Virus record (IMG/VR): IMGVR_UViG_3300009095_000014
Span: 20,581-84,580 of that record
From: a virus
Lineage: Duplodnaviria > Caudoviricetes
DNA: 64,000 nucleotides
Direction: 5' to 3' (one strand)
Under the pieces are notes generated by a model, which had not been told where the DNA came from, did no database searches, and was given only the letters and a program-made list of their open reading frames with translations. Below are positions 19,824 through 54,686 of this stretch, piece by piece; the stretch's first letter is position 1, and each line of letters opens with the position of its first letter. The position numbers and the translations under genes are program-made.

Positions 19824-21182
19824 ATGCGCGATGCATTAGCAAGCGCATTTGAGGACATCGATCCGGTGGAAACCCCACCGGACGATTTCTCTGATGAGCT
19901 GATGAATCCTGATACGAGTGAGCGGGAAGTCGACGAAGGTGGGAAGGAACTGCTGGCAGCGGTGGAATCCCTGATCGCCACAACCGAACATCTACTCACC
20001 AGCAACCAAGCCTCCACCGGTTCGGCCCTGATGCTGACCACCGCCCTGGAAAGCCTCCAGGATCGCTATGGCGTGGTGTTGATGCACACCTCCATGGAAG
20101 CCAGCGCTTCGGTAGAAGCGTATCACCAAGCGACGCTGGAGAGCTTGGAGGGCTTGAAGAACAAACTGCTCGACCGTGTCGTGAAGAACTTCAAGGAACT
20201 GGTCTACGGCCTTCGCGGTCGGGCGGGTAAAGCCCGTCAGGCTACCGGCGAACTGCAAGGACTGAAGCGCAAGTTTGAATCCCTGCAAAGGACATTGAAC
20301 GATAAGCCGGTGGTGCTCAACCACGGCGGGCTGGCACGGTTCCTGACCACCGAACACGGACCGGTCAAGGACATCCCGAAACAGATCCGTCACGACTTTG
20401 AAATCTGCGGCTACTTCACGGAGGAGTTCTGTGGGCTGTATCAGAAGTACTTGAGTGCCGTGGGTCGGGTCATTCCGGGCAAGCTGTACACGGTCACTGA
20501 TGTTGATCAGATGTTCGAAAAGCTCGCCGAACTGGACGTGCCCACCGAACAGATCAAGCGCGACTACACCGGTGGAAAAGACATGTTCTGGGCCAGTGGC
20601 TTCCATCTCACCGAAGTCAGGGCGCGCAGCAAGTCAGCCTTGGGTAAGATGGCCGAGTACCACAAGGTTACTTTCCAGCGGGGTAACACGCTTACCAATG
20701 ACAGTACCGTTAAGACCGCTGGCGCTGCCGGTGCAGCGATTGGTTTTGTCATCGGTGGTGCAAACCTCGGAGCAGCGGCCTTGGCCGGTGCGATTGCCGC
20801 TGGGATCGCCAACAAAGCCAAAGGGCTGCTGACCAAGGAACCCTTCTCGGTTGACCAGATCCACGATGCCATCGACCTGTGCCTGGGTGAGATGGACCGT
20901 GCTACGGTGGCGATTCAGAACCTAGAGGGAATCCAACGTGAACTCACTGGGATCGAGAAGAAGCTCACCCGAATCAACTGGGGGACGGGGTTGCCCAAGA
21001 GTGAACTGGCGCGGGTGGAAGCTGTTTACGGGTTATTCTGCGAACATGCCGAGAACCTGTGCCGGACAGTGGAAGATGCCTTGGATCATGTCCTTGCTAT
21101 CACCGGTTCGATCATGACGATCCTGAACAAGCTGGAAAGCAGGTACAAGAACCACGAACCCGCTGCCAACAGCGAGTACTAA
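19824..21182 (+). CDS. Head/ejection protein with acidic propeptide, paralog 2
   Basis: ALE, SME, SVE, SLE sites in the N-terminal region; Gly/Ala hydrophobic segment. Confidence 0.7.
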   Translation: MRDALASAFEDIDPVETPPDDFSDELMNPDTSEREVDEGGKELLAAVESLIATTEHLLTSNQASTGSALMLTTALESLQDRYGVVLMHTSMEASASVEAYHQATLESLEGLKNKLLDRVVKNFKELVYGLRGRAGKARQATGELQGLKRKFESLQRTLNDKPVVLNHGGLARFLTTEHGPVKDIPKQIRHDFEICGYFTEEFCGLYQKYLSAVGRVIPGKLYTVTDVDQMFEKLAELDVPTEQIKRDYTGGKDMFWASGFHLTEVRARSKSALGKMAEYHKVTFQRGNTLTNDSTVKTAGAAGAAIGFVIGGANLGAAALAGAIAAGIANKAKGLLTKEPFSVDQIHDAIDLCLGEMDRATVAIQNLEGIQRELTGIEKKLTRINWGTGLPKSELARVEAVYGLFCEHAENLCRTVEDALDHVLAITGSIMTILNKLESRYKNHEPAANSEY

Positions 21183-21250: not shown

Positions 21251-21277
21251 ATCTCAACCATACATTGTAGTTGTGAC
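21251..21277 (+). promoter_or_regulatory. Candidate early (vRNAP) promoter
   Basis: ATCTCAACCA-TACATTGT-AGTTGTGAC; motif recurs upstream of several accessory genes. Confidence 0.65.
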
Positions 21278-32692: not shown

Positions 32693-32726
32693 GCATACGG
32701 AGGAGGGGTACCCCTCCTCCGTATGC
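32693..32726. repeat. Perfect 34-bp palindrome
   Basis: GCATACGGAGGAGGGGT|ACCCCTCCTCCGTATGC, no T tract on either side. Confidence 0.9.
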
Positions 32727-32740
32727 TAAGTGAGCGTTGT

Positions 32741-34978
32741 ATGATTTTGTTTGAAAAGGATTGGGCACGGTTTCCGCGTGCCATTGCTGACTTCAAAACC
32801 AGCAACCAGAGTTTCATCGATCTGGTGATGTTGTATCGGCACATGGGCGTCAAGAACTGCCTGTTTCCTTTGGCGTTGATGCAACCGGAGCTACAAGGGG
32901 TGGACCCCCATGATCCAAACTTGGATGAGGTGACCCAAACCCGCATCAAGATTGAATGCAAATTCAACCCGTGGTACTACCTGCGTGAAGTGGTACGCGT
33001 ACCGCCGGTCTCGGGTGACACACCGGTGCAGCTGCGGGCTAACCGCGCCAACATCTCCCTGTGGTGGTGCTTCCTCAACCACATCGACTATTTCCTCGTC
33101 CAGATCCGTCAGACGGGTAAGTCGCTGAACACTGACGTACTGCACAACTGGTACCAAATTTTCGGAACGGAAAACACCCGTGCCAACCTCTTCACCAAAG
33201 ACGCTGACCTTATTAAAGAAAACATCGCGCGTCTGAAGAAGATCCGTAAGCTGCTGCCGCCCTATCTGGTTAACATCGTCCGTTCGGACACCGACAACCA
33301 GAAAGAGTTCACCAACTACGGTCAAGGCAACCGTTTGGTGGCTGTACAGGCTCAAGCCAACGAAGACGCGGCACTGAACATCGGTCGTGGATTGACCGCT
33401 GCCATGAACCATATCGACGAAGTGGCATTCCTGCGCTTTGTTCAGATCTCCGTGCCGGCGATGCTGGCAGGTTCGGGTGCAGCGCGTGAAGAAGCGGCTC
33501 GTAACGGCTTGCCCTACGGTAACATCTTCACGTCAACGGCCGGTAAGCTTGACAGTGAAGAAGGTTCCTTTGCCTACAAGCTGCTCAGTGATTCGATGGT
33601 CTGGGACGAATGCGTACTGGACTGCGAAGATCAGAAGGCCCTGTACAAGGTGGTCAGTGCACGTTGCAAGACAGACTCCTTGATGGTCAACGGGACCTTC
33701 AGCCACCGTCAGCTGGGCTTTACGGATGAATGGCTCCGCAAGCGCATCGCCGATTCTAAGCAGTCCGGTGACGATGCCCGTCGCGACTTCTTGAACGAAT
33801 GGACGGCCGGTAGTCTTTCTAACCCGCTGCCCACCTCGGTGCTGGAAACCATTCGCAAGCATGTAATCGACGCACCGTACAGTCAGGTGTTCAGTAGTCT
33901 TGGCTACATCATCCGCTGGTATGTGCCCAAGGAAGAAGTCGAGAACAAGTTGAGTGGTCGACAGCTGGTCATGGGGGTCGATACCTCCAACGCCACGGGT
34001 CGAGACAGTATCACTGGGGTGATCACTGACGTCAGTACACTGGAAACCGTCGGGGTTTGGTCGATCAATGAAACCAACCTGCAACTGTTCTCGGGTTGGC
34101 TGGCGCGTTTGATCGCTAATTTCAAGGGGCTGACAGTTGTACCGGAAAACAAGTCAACTTGGATTGCCATCTTGGACTACTTGCTGATTCACTTGCCCAC
34201 CGTGGGCATTGATCCGGGACGGCGGATCTACAGTCAGTTCATCGACCACATCAACGACGGTGACCGAGAAAAGCTGGAGTACAAAGAGTACCTGCGCAAT
34301 CCCATGTCACCTAACCACTACAACCGCTGGCGCCGGTACTTCGGGTTCCCCACCAACGGACCGCTACGTGAACTGCTCTATGGCAGCGTGATTCAAGAAG
34401 CGGGTAAGTTGGCAGGTGCGATGGTACGAGACAAGGACTTGGCCGCTGAGATCTCGGGACTGGTGGTGAAGAACGGTCGGATTGACCACCGCAATGGTTT
34501 CCATGACGACCATGTCATCTCGTGGCTGTTGACGCACTGGTTCCTGACCTACGCCAAGAACTTGGAACACTACGGGATCGACAAGACCTTGGTCAAACGC
34601 AAGCTGCGCGAAATGGCGGTGGAGACCACCGACTGGCGAGCGGCACGGGAAGCAGAACTGCAAAAACAACTCCGGAATGAGTTGGAAGAAGTCTTGGATA
34701 AGATCAAGGTCGCACGAGACGAATACCAGATCATGCGACTGGAACACCGACTGAACTCCATCTACGCCCGCTTGGATGTGGGTGGCTTGGGTATGGACGC
34801 CGGCAGCATCGACGCCCTGATTGAAGAAGCCCGTGATCGCCGTGCGATCGGTAACCGGCAGAAACAACAAGGCGCGCGACAAACCGCTGAACCGGAACGC
34901 TATGCGTCGATCAACGGAACCGGACGCTTTGGGGGACGGGGCGGATACCAACCGTCCTCTTCGGTGGTGATGTGCTGA
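32741..34978 (+). CDS. terL: Terminase large subunit
   Basis: Walker A RQTGKS, Walker B HIDEVAF, nuclease GVDTS and HDDHVIS; likely start MILFEKDW at 32741. Confidence 0.93.
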   Translation: MILFEKDWARFPRAIADFKTSNQSFIDLVMLYRHMGVKNCLFPLALMQPELQGVDPHDPNLDEVTQTRIKIECKFNPWYYLREVVRVPPVSGDTPVQLRANRANISLWWCFLNHIDYFLVQIRQTGKSLNTDVLHNWYQIFGTENTRANLFTKDADLIKENIARLKKIRKLLPPYLVNIVRSDTDNQKEFTNYGQGNRLVAVQAQANEDAALNIGRGLTAAMNHIDEVAFLRFVQISVPAMLAGSGAAREEAARNGLPYGNIFTSTAGKLDSEEGSFAYKLLSDSMVWDECVLDCEDQKALYKVVSARCKTDSLMVNGTFSHRQLGFTDEWLRKRIADSKQSGDDARRDFLNEWTAGSLSNPLPTSVLETIRKHVIDAPYSQVFSSLGYIIRWYVPKEEVENKLSGRQLVMGVDTSNATGRDSITGVITDVSTLETVGVWSINETNLQLFSGWLARLIANFKGLTVVPENKSTWIAILDYLLIHLPTVGIDPGRRIYSQFIDHINDGDREKLEYKEYLRNPMSPNHYNRWRRYFGFPTNGPLRELLYGSVIQEAGKLAGAMVRDKDLAAEISGLVVKNGRIDHRNGFHDDHVISWLLTHWFLTYAKNLEHYGIDKTLVKRKLREMAVETTDWRAAREAELQKQLRNELEEVLDKIKVARDEYQIMRLEHRLNSIYARLDVGGLGMDAGSIDALIEEARDRRAIGNRQKQQGARQTAEPERYASINGTGRFGGRGGYQPSSSVVMC

Positions 34979-35021
34979 CGGCATACAGGGGAGGGCACGA
35001 AGCCCTCCCCTGTATGCCGTC
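34977..35021. repeat. 20-bp-stem inverted repeat after terL
   Basis: GACGGCATACAGGGGAGGGC-ACGAA-GCCCTCCCCTGTATGCCGTC. Confidence 0.9.
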
Positions 35022-35040
35022 TAGGATTAGATCCCAATTC

Positions 35041-35067
35041 TTTTCGATCATACATTGTTCGAGTGAC
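35041..35067 (+). promoter_or_regulatory. Candidate early promoter
   Basis: TTTTCGATCA-TACATTGT-TCGAGTGAC followed by a short leader hairpin GGTAC/GTACC. Confidence 0.65.
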
Positions 35068-35115: not shown

Positions 35116-35280
35116 ATGTTCCGTGAGATCAATGAAGTGCACGAAATCCGCGAAAGAATCGAACGCCGTAAGCGAAAAGAGTTGGAGAACACCAACCTCT
35201 TTCGACTTGCTCAACGTGCTGTTGAGCAGAAACAGCTCCAAGACCTCCAAAACCTTGACGCACCGATGCGCGTCAAGTAA
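35116..35280 (+). CDS. Small charged helical protein (54 aa, not in ORF track)
   Basis: TAAGGAG RBS; MFREINEVHEIRERIERRKRKELENTNLFRLAQRAVEQKQLQDLQNLDAPMRVK. Confidence 0.75.
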   Translation: MFREINEVHEIRERIERRKRKELENTNLFRLAQRAVEQKQLQDLQNLDAPMRVK

Positions 35281-35357
35281 GTAACACCCACCCCCGCCTA
35301 TAGGGGATTAACGAGGGTGACAATCCGGTCGCCCCGCACGTCCTAGGAGGACACAGC

Positions 35358-35720
35358 ATGAACAAGATCGCCAACCTGACCCAGCACAATGCTACTGAAG
35401 AGCAAGTGGCAGCGGGCGTATTCGACCTCGTCGGCGAGGATCGAAAGATGTTGGTGAAGCTTCTCACCTTCGCCACCCTCCCCACCAAGGAGGAAATCGA
35501 AGAGCGCGCCAAAGCCATCGCCATGTTGGTGATGGGATGCCGCGCCGCCATGATCGGCGGCGCCCCGTACCTCATGCCCGCTCTCGAGCGTGCACTGAAG
35601 GAAGAGGGGGTTATGCCCCTCTACGCGTTCTCGGAACGCGTGTCGGTCGAGGAACTGTTGGCAGATGGCAGTATACGGAAAATCAACGTGTTCAAACATG
35701 TGGGATGGGTCGAGGCGTAA
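35358..35720 (+). CDS. Csx20-like protein, candidate viral ring nuclease
   Basis: AGGAGG RBS; QHNATEEQ, AMIGG, GVMPLYAFSERVSVEE and DGSIRKINVFKH match my recalled Csx20 pattern (SHxLTxEQ, LIQGD, GLIPVYATTxRxxxEE, KxSxFKH); no HMM run. Confidence 0.6.
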   Translation: MNKIANLTQHNATEEQVAAGVFDLVGEDRKMLVKLLTFATLPTKEEIEERAKAIAMLVMGCRAAMIGGAPYLMPALERALKEEGVMPLYAFSERVSVEELLADGSIRKINVFKHVGWVEA

Positions 35721-35833: not shown

Positions 35834-36148
35834 ATGGAATTCGTCAAAGTAAACTCTCAAGATCTGCAAATCGTTTTTTCGGCAGTGGTCGAACTGATCA
35901 CCGCCATGGATGTTGCGTTTGATGTAGTAAAACAGGATTACAAGGTGGCATCCTTGCAATCTGAGCCGATAAAGAACTACTTCGAGGCAATTGCCTCGAT
36001 CAGTTCTGCAAGTAAATTATCGGCAGAACAAACTGCCGATACCATCATGCGCATCAAGGATGCGCAGATTAAGAAGATCACCAGCGAAGGGGTCTACTAC
36101 CCCCTTCTGCATCGGGAGATCAAGGCTTGGCTTGCCAAGCGCTCCTGA
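35834..36148 (+). CDS. Hypothetical protein (104 aa)
   Basis: AGGGG RBS; followed by a terminator. Confidence 0.75.
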   Translation: MEFVKVNSQDLQIVFSAVVELITAMDVAFDVVKQDYKVASLQSEPIKNYFEAIASISSASKLSAEQTADTIMRIKDAQIKKITSEGVYYPLLHREIKAWLAKRS

Positions 36149-36152
36149 CAGC

Positions 36153-36195
36153 ATAGAGAGGAGCCTTCGGGCTCCTCTCTATCTTTTTTATTTTC
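36153..36195 (+). terminator. Intrinsic terminator
   Basis: ATAGAGAGGAGCC-TTCG-GGCTCCTCTCTAT followed by a T tract. Confidence 0.85.
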
Positions 36196-41098: not shown

Positions 41099-41161
41099 AA
41101 GGAGTAGTCCTCGACAATAACCCGTGGCACTGTCGCCACTCACGTCCTAGGAGGACACGCT

Positions 41162-41818
41162 ATGAACAGTTACACTCAACAGATCGAAGCCGCCGCTGCG
41201 TACATCGCCCGCCGGGGCTCGTTGGATACGCTGGAAATGCGTATCATGCGGGAGCTGGATAATCGGTCCAGAAATGTCTTAACCAGCTTCATGGGTGAAG
41301 ACGCCAACGAAGTCATCGCCGCCGCTAACCGCGGTGACTTCCTGGCAATCCTCTGGATGACGACCTACGGGTCAGATCCTGCCCGCGTGCAGGAGGGCAT
41401 CTACCTGAAAACGGATTCGATAGCCAAGTACGTGCAGCTGGTCATCGAATCCGACGGGTCCAGTCAAGGCGAGTTGTATAAACTCGCCAAGGCCCTGAAC
41501 AAGGACGAGGAGGAGGACGGCTTCCTGCGCTTCTATGCGGAAGCACGCCGCCGTGTCGAGGATCTCCTCATCCGCGACACCAACGCGGAACTCAACCACA
41601 TCCGCGAAGGGGAAGAAGGGGAGCGCGCCCTTCTGAACTGGCTGAGGGACCTGTCCGAGGACCAGATCTTTGATCTGAAGACCACTGCAGGGCTCACGGT
41701 AGGGCCGTTCCAGTACTACTGGAACTCCGTCGATTGCCCCGACCGGTGGTCCTTCTTCCTCGAAAGGGGAGGCAGGCTGTTGGAATGGGAGATCCATGGA
41801 TCTTTCATCCGACAGTGA
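41162..41818 (+). CDS. Hypothetical early protein (218 aa)
   Basis: AGGAGG RBS within a leader shared with 35358. Confidence 0.85.
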   Translation: MNSYTQQIEAAAAYIARRGSLDTLEMRIMRELDNRSRNVLTSFMGEDANEVIAAANRGDFLAILWMTTYGSDPARVQEGIYLKTDSIAKYVQLVIESDGSSQGELYKLAKALNKDEEEDGFLRFYAEARRRVEDLLIRDTNAELNHIREGEEGERALLNWLRDLSEDQIFDLKTTAGLTVGPFQYYWNSVDCPDRWSFFLERGGRLLEWEIHGSFIRQ

Positions 41819-52772: not shown

Positions 52773-54686
52773 ATGGCATTTAATGTCAACGAAAACAACG
52801 GCGCCGCCAAGGTCAACGAAGCTGTGCTGGGTCAGGGTAAGCCGGTCGAGCAACCGGCTCCGCAAACCCCGCCGCCCGGCAACCCTGGCGACGTCCGTAC
52901 CGGTTCCATCCGTGATCTGAACCGGACTCTGGCTCGTCCGATGGGTCGTACTTCGGCAGGCGAATATCTGGCCAAGTTCGTCAAGCACATGAACGAAATG
53001 TTCAGCCCTGATCAGGAAATCTCCAGCGATTCCCCGATCAGCCTCGACCAGTTCCGCGTTGTGGGTATCGATGCCCACGAAGCCAACCTGGCCACTTCGG
53101 CTGCCGTGATCCTGCTGCCGCTGGAACTGCCCGACCAGCCGAACGTCACCCAGGTCTTCGCCCACACCCTGCTGCTGGAAGCCAGCGCCGGTACTCTGGC
53201 CCCGCGCATCGGTGAGTGGAATGGTCGTCGCTTCGACATCGTCCAAACCGTGGGCGACGTCTGGGACCAGCGCTACCTGAACCGCGTTCAAGAATCCATC
53301 TCCAACCTGGTACAAGGCCAAGTGGTCTTCCACGACTGCGGTGTTTCCACCGTGCCGTCCGAAGTCGACCCGGAAAAGGACAGCGACAAGCTGCGCAACC
53401 TGGCGTTCTACGCTTCGGCTGCCGTGACCACCCTGTCCGTCGAGAAGATCGGCTACCAGCCGCGCTTCGCTGCCGACTGGCTGTCGGCCGATGACCGTGT
53501 CGACGTCTCCATCGACTTCGGTGGTGACCCGATCAAGACTGCTTCCGGTCTGCCCAAGCGTACCGACGTGGCCCTGAACCTGACCGCCACCCTGCTGGAG
53601 AAGGAAGGCGGCAACCGTCGTCAGGGTCTGACCACCGTCGGCGGTCAGCTGGAGATGATCTACACCACCCCGCAGGCATCCCAGGACACCCTGAACTTCG
53701 GCCGTCGTCGTGATGGTGAGACCCAGCACTTCTACCCGGTCTTCAACATCACCACCCTGGATACTCAGGGCAAGCAGATCACCCTCGAACTGCTGACCCT
53801 GGGTCTGGCTTCGGTGTCCCTGCTCACCGACAACCTCTACTGGGTGAACGGCTTCCGCCCGAATCTCCTGAAGGCTGCTGGTGGCAAGTCCATCAACCTG
53901 CGTGATATCGGCAAGCTGAACCTGCTGGCCGGCGGCCAGGCAGTCGACGTCCTCGGTGGCAACTTCTCCGATGACGATCTGCTGGAATACCTCGGCACCC
54001 TGTGCCACCGCGATCTGGCCATCGGCATGCACGTCGAAGAGCGTGGCGAACTCACCTGGGTTCACCAAGTGATCCTCGACGCCGCTCTCGACCCGGCCGG
54101 TACCGGTGCGCAGATCCTGCGCAACTCCTTCGACCATGTGACTGGCAACCGTTTCACTACGGCCCACGAACAACTGGCCGGCGTTGGCGCACCGCTGGTG
54201 GTGAGCGGTCAGAACCGTATCATCCTCGGCACCTACGTCGACGATGCAGGTAACGTCAAGGACCTGCGTGATATCGACACCCTGGCCATGCTGAACCTCG
54301 CTCCGCAGGACCCGGAGCAGGCCCTGCTGTGGCAGGACACCTACGACCAAACCGATCTCCCGATGGACTACCGTCTGGAGCGTCGTATCTCCATGCTGAC
54401 CAACCGTTTCGGTGGTGGCGTGAAGGTCAAGGGCTTCGCCCAGCAGGTGTTCTTCCCGAAGGAAGTCATCGCCGCTCTCGCCGCCGCCATCCGTGGTTGC
54501 GGTATCGTGATCAACCGCGTCAGCGCGGGTGTTCAGATGGGCAGCATGCGTCAGCGCGGCAACACCATGATCGGCGGTCTGGCCGGTCACAACCTGGGCG
54601 GCAGCCTGTTTGGTTTCGCGACCAGCCAGGGTACCCAAACCCAGGACTACACTCGTCCCTTCATGGGTCGCGTGCGTCAGTGGTAA
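52773..54686 (+). CDS. chmA: Chimallin, major phage nuclear shell protein
   Basis: 637 aa; DIGKL, RTDVAL and KDLRDIDTLAMLN match recalled chimallin motifs; extreme codon bias; immediately upstream of nvRNAP beta'. Confidence 0.9.
   Translation: MAFNVNENNGAAKVNEAVLGQGKPVEQPAPQTPPPGNPGDVRTGSIRDLNRTLARPMGRTSAGEYLAKFVKHMNEMFSPDQEISSDSPISLDQFRVVGIDAHEANLATSAAVILLPLELPDQPNVTQVFAHTLLLEASAGTLAPRIGEWNGRRFDIVQTVGDVWDQRYLNRVQESISNLVQGQVVFHDCGVSTVPSEVDPEKDSDKLRNLAFYASAAVTTLSVEKIGYQPRFAADWLSADDRVDVSIDFGGDPIKTASGLPKRTDVALNLTATLLEKEGGNRRQGLTTVGGQLEMIYTTPQASQDTLNFGRRRDGETQHFYPVFNITTLDTQGKQITLELLTLGLASVSLLTDNLYWVNGFRPNLLKAAGGKSINLRDIGKLNLLAGGQAVDVLGGNFSDDDLLEYLGTLCHRDLAIGMHVEERGELTWVHQVILDAALDPAGTGAQILRNSFDHVTGNRFTTAHEQLAGVGAPLVVSGQNRIILGTYVDDAGNVKDLRDIDTLAMLNLAPQDPEQALLWQDTYDQTDLPMDYRLERRISMLTNRFGGGVKVKGFAQQVFFPKEVIAALAAAIRGCGIVINRVSAGVQMGSMRQRGNTMIGGLAGHNLGGSLFGFATSQGTQTQDYTRPFMGRVRQW

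Follow-up and report, generated by a model that had tools for sequence, protein, structure and literature searches.

A Csx20-like gene in a chimallin-encoding phiKZ-like phage: a candidate viral ring nuclease from a large clade distinct from canonical Csx20

The DNA considered here is a stretch of 64,000 nucleotides, hereafter the window, corresponding to positions 20,581 to 84,580 of an 84.6-kb IMG/VR viral contig (record IMGVR_UViG_3300009095_000014; estimated completeness 30%) that derives from an uncultured phage through one soil metagenome run. We focus on a small gene coding for a protein of 120 amino acids (aa), which lies in a short cassette behind the large terminase gene terL and which is a candidate for a viral ring nuclease, i.e. 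an enzyme destroying the cyclic oligoadenylates (cOA) of type III CRISPR immunity. A preliminary description, made from the nucleotide letters, had singled out this open reading frame (ORF), its strong ribosome-binding site and several protein motifs; each of them was confirmed, the ORF at 35358–35720 on the plus strand and the motifs being QH-NA-TEEQ (residues 9–16), AMIGG (64–68), GVMPLYAFSERVSVEE (84–99) and DGSIRKINVFKH (103–114). When the 5 kb around the gene were compared by megablast with cultured phages no match was obtained. The idea of a chance ORF without function can practically be dismissed: it is ruled out by thousands of conserved homologues, by the strong ribosome-binding site, by the confidence of the structural model and by the profile alignment presented below.

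The 120-aa protein is almost certainly a member of the Csx20/MJ1673 superfamily. In NCBIfam it matches CAS_Csx20 (NF040559) at E 1.6e-7 and 31.7 bits, the equivalog cut-off being 70 bits, and in PADLOC it matches five models of the Csx20 type, the best at E 9.1e-8 between residues 3–116 of the protein and positions 3–122 of the 128 positions of the model; all its matches in both collections are Csx20 models. Pfam, in a set used without the PF27247 model, and PHROGs gave no match, and no relative came up when the PDB was searched by sequence. As a reference we took, in 401 genomes belonging to a single bacterial phylum, 18 canonical Csx20 proteins with NF040559 scores of 138–166 bits. Aligned profile to profile with this set (hhalign), the phage family reaches a probability of 97.0% and an E value of 8.6e-11, the alignment spanning 109 columns and thus almost the full length, and the invariant residues coincide (window protein/canonical Csx20): H10/H7, Q16/Q13, G68-A69/G75-A76, Y89/Y93, R94/R98, F112/F116 and H114/H118. 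Besides, all 38 members of the subfamily match Csx20 as their sole NCBIfam family (best E 5.9e-11, none near the 70-bit cut-off). The hhalign result, the coinciding residues and the Csx20-only matches in NCBIfam together establish the homology. The spaced Csx20 pattern given in the preliminary description was thus accurate, and the profile search that it had proposed does find the family, in NCBIfam, in PADLOC and with hhalign.

Compared with Csx20 as characterised (NF040559, PMC12409355), the protein has a similar size (120 aa against about 124 aa), is homologous over nearly its whole length, and shares the signatures [ST]-x-H-x-x-[TS]-x-x-Q, a glycine-rich loop, P-[IL]-Y-A-x-[ST]-x-R and F-[KR]-H, so that both histidines and the arginine are kept. 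Its own relatives are numerous: there are 1453 (as clusters at 90% identity) at E≤1e-3, and a profile built from 38 relatives reaches 2628 clusters (50% identity), of which 918 have E≤1e-30. Precomputed annotation places PF27247 (“MJ1673”) on every listed homologue, these sharing 53–96% identity, and full-length profile homology likewise attaches the protein to the PF27247 superfamily. Among 123 single-domain representatives T8, H10, R94 and H114 are nearly invariant.

This kinship does not make the protein a Csx20 in the strict sense. Its score is well under the NF040559 cut-off, and the gene is neither in nor beside a type III CRISPR-Cas locus, where canonical Csx20 is found: it is phage-encoded, and its neighbours are terL, virion genes and phiKZ-like genes. 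From the canonical invariant set H7, Q13, P42, Q71-G72-D73, G75-A76, Y93, R98, F116 and H118, the protein keeps H, Q, G-A, Y, R, F and H; Q71-G72-D73 is absent, replaced through a deletion of three residues, as is the canonical W37, and the C-terminal tail is different. In a tree of 141 sequences, a branch with 99% support in the Shimodaira–Hasegawa-like approximate likelihood ratio test (SH-aLRT) leaves canonical Csx20 on one side and the window protein on the other, the homologues of Rhodothermus phage RM378 and Fusobacterium phage JD-Fnp4 grouping with the latter; the same tree gives no decision between a single and multiple origins of the copies in chimallivirus-like phages. These sequence comparisons set the protein apart from canonical Csx20 and place it in a very large, mostly viral, non-CRISPR clade (PF27247). 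The term “host-type” ring nuclease, used at first for this gene, has to be qualified, the protein belonging to this distinct clade. The two kinds can be met together: a Thermoanaerobacter sp. genome (G001; L147, L150) encodes a canonical Csx20 (157 bits) and, on a contig of 1.7 kb, a phage-type copy (36 bits); the assembly could thus combine a host ring nuclease with a copy from a prophage or phage.

Concerning the carrier, its genes (Table 1) show a phiKZ-like phage that, at the gene level, is likely of the “nucleus-forming” kind. The terminase is 54.7% identical to that of Pseudomonas phage pPa_SNUABM_DT01 and has matches in 314 phage records, mostly phiKZ-like jumbo phages; the beta subunit of a multisubunit RNA polymerase is recognised by phrog_3148 with 1082.9 bits; and chimallin, the protein of the phage nuclear shell, also matches Pfam PF25677 over residues 23–606 (112.7 bits against a cut-off of 27). 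The nucleus-forming character that had been attributed to the phage is supported by these three genes, and the phage is probably a nucleus former. A gene with an N-terminal Acb4-family domain starts 2.4 kb downstream of the Csx20-like gene, on the opposite strand. PF13876 (the N4 Gp49/Sf6 gp66 family) is defined by Acb4, an anti-CBASS sponge (PMC11722364), CBASS being the cyclic-oligonucleotide-based antiphage signalling system. With this domain nearby, the region looks, from its gene content, like an accessory block directed against immune signalling. The PF13876 protein is usually stand-alone, with about 100 aa; the form found here, in which the domain is followed by some 200 aa without recognised family, is an unusual fusion.

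Table 1. Features of the window around the Csx20-like gene (positions are those of the window)
Feature	Position	Strand	Evidence
Large terminase gene (terL), directly upstream of the cassette	32723..34978	+	phrog_2 terminase large subunit
22-bp hairpin, terminator-like upstream boundary of the cassette	34975..35025	+	RNA fold, free energy (dG) -46.5 kcal/mol, z -11.2
Promoter-like motif TACATTGT-N4-GTG, 51 nt 5' of the first cassette ORF	35051..35065	+	repeated motif
54-aa ORF, first cassette gene	35116..35280	+	TAAGGAG upstream
Shine-Dalgarno AGGAGG, 7 nt 5' of the ATG of the Csx20-like gene	35345..35350	+	sequence
Csx20-like gene of the MJ1673/PF27247 family (120 aa); putative viral ring nuclease acting on cyclic oligoadenylate	35358..35720	+	NF040559, PADLOC Csx20, hhalign, AlphaFold2
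104-aa ORF, last cassette gene	35834..36148	+	ORF; GC ~0.47-0.49 vs 0.53-0.59 around
Intrinsic terminator closing the cassette	36153..36192	+	13-bp stem, 7 GC pairs, 4-nt loop, tail CTTTTTTATT
Gene with N-terminal Acb4-family (PF13876) domain, 317 aa	38120..39073	-	PF13876 E 9.7e-10, 39.3 bits vs cut-off 27, residues 25-95
Chimallin (phage nuclear shell protein) gene	52773..54686	+	phiKZ gp54 E 9.8e-27 over residues 3-611 of 626

The clade extends far beyond such phages. Among cultured phages the matches are limited to Rhodothermus phage RM378 (44.5% identity, full length), Pasteurella phage Pm86 and Fusobacterium phage JD-Fnp4, the homologues of RM378 and JD-Fnp4 being annotated solely as hypothetical proteins; none of the cultured phiKZ-like phages carries a Csx20-like gene. 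In other contigs resembling chimalliviruses the gene adjoins phiKZ_IP, gp29PR and VTX genes (L004–006), and one record (L080/L085) encodes both a Csx20-like protein and a chimallin (140 bits); the position of the gene differs among these contigs. Other carriers include complete phages of 149–170 kb devoid of chimallin and many viral contigs of ordinary size. The sole recurrent neighbour in viral loci is the large terminase, as in the window, and there is no obligate partner; when the neighbour genes of 142 loci were compared, none recurred in more than 12 of them.

The clade has also a chromosomal subgroup, in Patescibacteria, where the gene adjoins a gene of about 264 aa for a winged helix-turn-helix protein of the TrmB family and lies near that of RNase Y, this synteny being maintained across several classes (in Saccharibacteria, Paceibacteria, Nomurabacteria and Parcubacteria; contigs L090, L102, L108, L120–L122, L131, L135, L137 and L143). 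The adjoining gene codes for an ordinary TrmB-family regulator with no match in PADLOC, and is uninformative on chemistry. Because of this subgroup, the clade is shown not to be purely a phage weapon. The synteny near RNase Y and a TrmB-family regulator could hint at a non-immune function, for example the processing of 2',3'-cyclic phosphate ends of RNA or nucleotides, the phage copy serving nucleotide or RNA metabolism; the lack of a conserved phage partner (no neighbour common to more than 12 of the 142 loci) and the fold of the protein, apparently a generic Rossmann-like one, go in the same direction. We nevertheless judge this distinctly unlikely. The only characterised relatives are cOA ring nucleases, and the phage copies occupy accessory positions that vary, with terL as a frequent neighbour and, in the window, an Acb4-family gene close by, which is typical of anti-defence genes; phage homologues are even found in acr operons.

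The same distribution bears on the connection with the phage nucleus. The Csx20-like gene is not specific to nucleus-forming phages. It had been proposed that the gene covers a gap which the phage nucleus leaves open to type III CRISPR: the gene does reside in a phage encoding chimallin, but the link is circumstantial, because the clade is common in ordinary, chimallin-less phages and present in the chromosomes of Patescibacteria.

The AlphaFold2 model of the 120-aa protein (predicted local distance difference test, pLDDT, of 94.5) depicts a confidently folded alpha/beta domain. For a homodimer with two adenosine monophosphate (AMP) molecules the prediction scored 0.40 against a mark of 0.42, the controls scoring 0.00; we use it as evidence neither way. 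Natural tandem fusions of two complete domains, found in 18–19 of the 148 best representatives, would independently support a two-fold unit. Whereas a histidine stands at the H10 site in 120 of 123 single-domain proteins, in the fusions it is kept by 8 of the 18 first repeats and by 13 of the 18 second ones, and in one repeat H10 is often F or W. AlphaFold2 folds both domains of one natural fusion (P0122), the packing of the domains being not defined (predicted template modelling score, pTM, of 0.49). The fusions are among representatives P0122–P0141, one of which has three Csx20-like domains. Some of these fusions are much longer, with extra regions devoid of Pfam domains (P0127, 668 aa; P0130, 613 aa; P0136, 650 aa): in ten fused or long members, Pfam gave nothing for nine and DUF4116 for one (P0137). 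Six members (P0144, P0164, P0168, P0206, P0224 and P0259) share a related N-terminal extension of about 110–160 aa that belongs to no known family; we considered degenerate copies of the domain in these extensions, and none is detectable.

What the protein does may be approached through its characterised relatives. Purified Csx20 degrades the cyclic oligoadenylate cA4, and cA3 at tenfold more enzyme (PMC12409355); its proposed catalytic set consists of His, Arg and acidic residues (PMC8284326). Judging by the His/His/Arg core that it keeps and by the signs of a two-fold unit, the phage protein would be a dimeric, metal-independent ring nuclease. In detail, it would be a small stand-alone enzyme of CARF-like type, whose homodimer would bind cA4, possibly cA3, in a composite site to which T8-Q9-H10 would contribute from the loop following strand 1, G67-G68-A69-P70 from the glycine-rich loop behind the central strand, together with R94, K108 and H114 of the C-terminal beta-hairpin. 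The ring would be cut without metal into linear products ending in a 2',3'-cyclic phosphate, as for the Csx20 that has been tested.

Protection from nucleus-forming phages is afforded by type III CRISPR, which senses the mRNA that is exported (10.1101/2022.06.20.496707). The 120-aa protein, presumably made in the cytoplasm from the three-gene cassette downstream of terL, could remove the cOA that a host type III complex makes upon recognising exported phage mRNA, and effectors like Csx1/Csm6, Can1/2 or NucC would then stay off. On its sequence, we lean, by a small measure, towards this full reading of the protein as a ring nuclease directed against type III CRISPR.

A non-catalytic sponge sequestering cOA would be in line with some Csx15 members, which are non-enzymatic cA4 binders (PMC13148439), and with the fact that sponges are a common phage strategy (PMC11722364; 10.1101/2025.07.12.664507). 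On the other hand, the two histidines and the arginine, which hardly vary among over 120 diverse members, fall on residues that are invariant in Csx20, a pattern that is a better fit to catalysis, so that we consider a sponge very improbable.

The main target might be another nucleotide immune signal (cA3 or cAAG of CBASS, or other cyclic oligonucleotides), making the protein an anti-CBASS or broad anti-signalling factor. For example, Csx20 degrades cA3 at higher enzyme concentration (PMC12409355), and viral cA3 nucleases could counter type III CRISPR as well as CBASS (PMC12830947). Closer to the gene, the adjacent Acb4-family domain belongs to a family of anti-CBASS sponges, the altered QGD loop could shift the specificity, and the clade is far commoner in phages than expected of a factor acting on cA4 only. 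At the opposite, all tested relatives prefer cA4, and we hold a main target other than the type III signal to be unlikely. It overlaps in any case with the anti-type III ring nuclease that we favour, because fold and chemistry are the same in both.

One may extend the favoured reading to the whole clade, though the odds would rather be against the extended version taken in full. The non-CRISPR clade, which is mostly viral and counts no fewer than 918 clusters (50% identity) at E≤1e-30, might be a major family of viral cOA nucleases, far more abundant than AcrIII-1; the loop lacking QGD might broaden the activity to cA3 and cA4; and in phages with chimallin these proteins might neutralise the type III responses of the Csm6/Csx1 and NucC types, as well as cA3 CBASS, and so shut the one gap towards CRISPR that is known for the phage nucleus.

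Several of these elements have precedents. Hoikkala et al. 2025 (PMC12409355) noted Csx20 in the genomes of four phages, and csx20-aca14 operons, belonging to the Aca14-regulated acr operons, were described in Pasteurella, csx20 being a likely co-opted cas gene (PMC13551039). These phage homologues fall in the same clade as the window protein and have the same proposed role, co-option for counter-defence; so the novelty first claimed for the gene was overstated. The window gene differs by its carrier, a chimallin-encoding phiKZ-like jumbo phage, and, from the Pasteurella operons, by its surroundings: no ribbon-helix-helix regulator of the Aca14 type was recognised adjoining it, and its partners of 54 and 104 aa are without family match. 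In the literature we found no paper that connects the Csx20-like family with chimalliviruses or in which a phage Csx20 is assayed. What is added here is how large and distinct the non-CRISPR clade is, and that it occurs in phages encoding chimallin, beside an Acb4-family gene.

With the known viral ring nuclease AcrIII-1/Crn2 (DUF1874, PF08960), the protein would share the job, that of a small dimeric viral enzyme destroying cA4 against type III CRISPR, but it is of an unrelated family, as had been anticipated, and of an unrelated fold. PF08960 has no match in the protein (Pfam, E≤10), nor anywhere in the 84.6-kb record. The resemblance to Crn1 (Sso2081/Sis0455, of CARF type, with solved structures) is a weak match, and the Ser/Lys chemistry of Crn1 contrasts with the conserved His/His/Arg of the window clade.

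Nucleus-forming jumbo phages are attractive for therapy, as they resist the defences that target DNA, type III CRISPR being the reported exception. To our knowledge, type III is indeed the only CRISPR route effective against them. If the favoured reading is true, the ring nuclease shows how this exception can be closed, and sensitivity to type III would not be universal among such phages. More generally, the survey shows the “phage Csx20” to be more than a few stray cas genes: they form a clade that is large, distinct and strongly conserved, in which one biochemical characterisation would annotate thousands of viral genes. Since the concept is already published, the value lies in its confirmation and scope, not in a new principle.

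Coming back to the cassette, the operon that had been surmised takes the form of three compact ORFs, the Csx20-like gene in the middle, set between the hairpin that follows terL and a terminator with a T-run. Neither partner was assigned: the 54-aa ORF matches nothing in Pfam or PADLOC, the 104-aa ORF nothing in Pfam. A conserved 54-aa partner was envisaged, as an ORF of this size also precedes the homologue of contig L004, and rejected, the two ORFs being unrelated. The hairpin behind terL has a perfect stem, and none of 200 shuffled sequences folded as stably; it lacks a T-run and is not among the results of a scan for consensus terminators. It may serve the phage's own polymerase as a factor-independent terminator, or else be a site of processing.

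A promoter had also been expected upstream of the cassette, and an enriched motif is indeed present there. TACATTGT-N4-GTG occurs in four exact copies on the plus strand of the window (at 21261, 23192, 35051 and 41082); with at most one mismatch there are five matches for 0.81 expected, a number that 0 of 100 shuffles reached. We regard it as a plausible candidate for a promoter element of the phage, judging by its recurrence. The copies at 35051 and 41082 stand just 5' of the two accessory units that were inspected. The hairpins predicted to occlude the Shine-Dalgarno of the genes of these units that start at 35358 and 41162 are no more stable than those of shuffled sequences (z -1.4 and -1.0). 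These two genes, accessory and unrelated, have in common an identical leader of 18 nt, CACGTCCTAGGAGGACAC, which spans the Shine-Dalgarno (compared over 35331–35364 and 41135–41168), and both start with ATGAACA.
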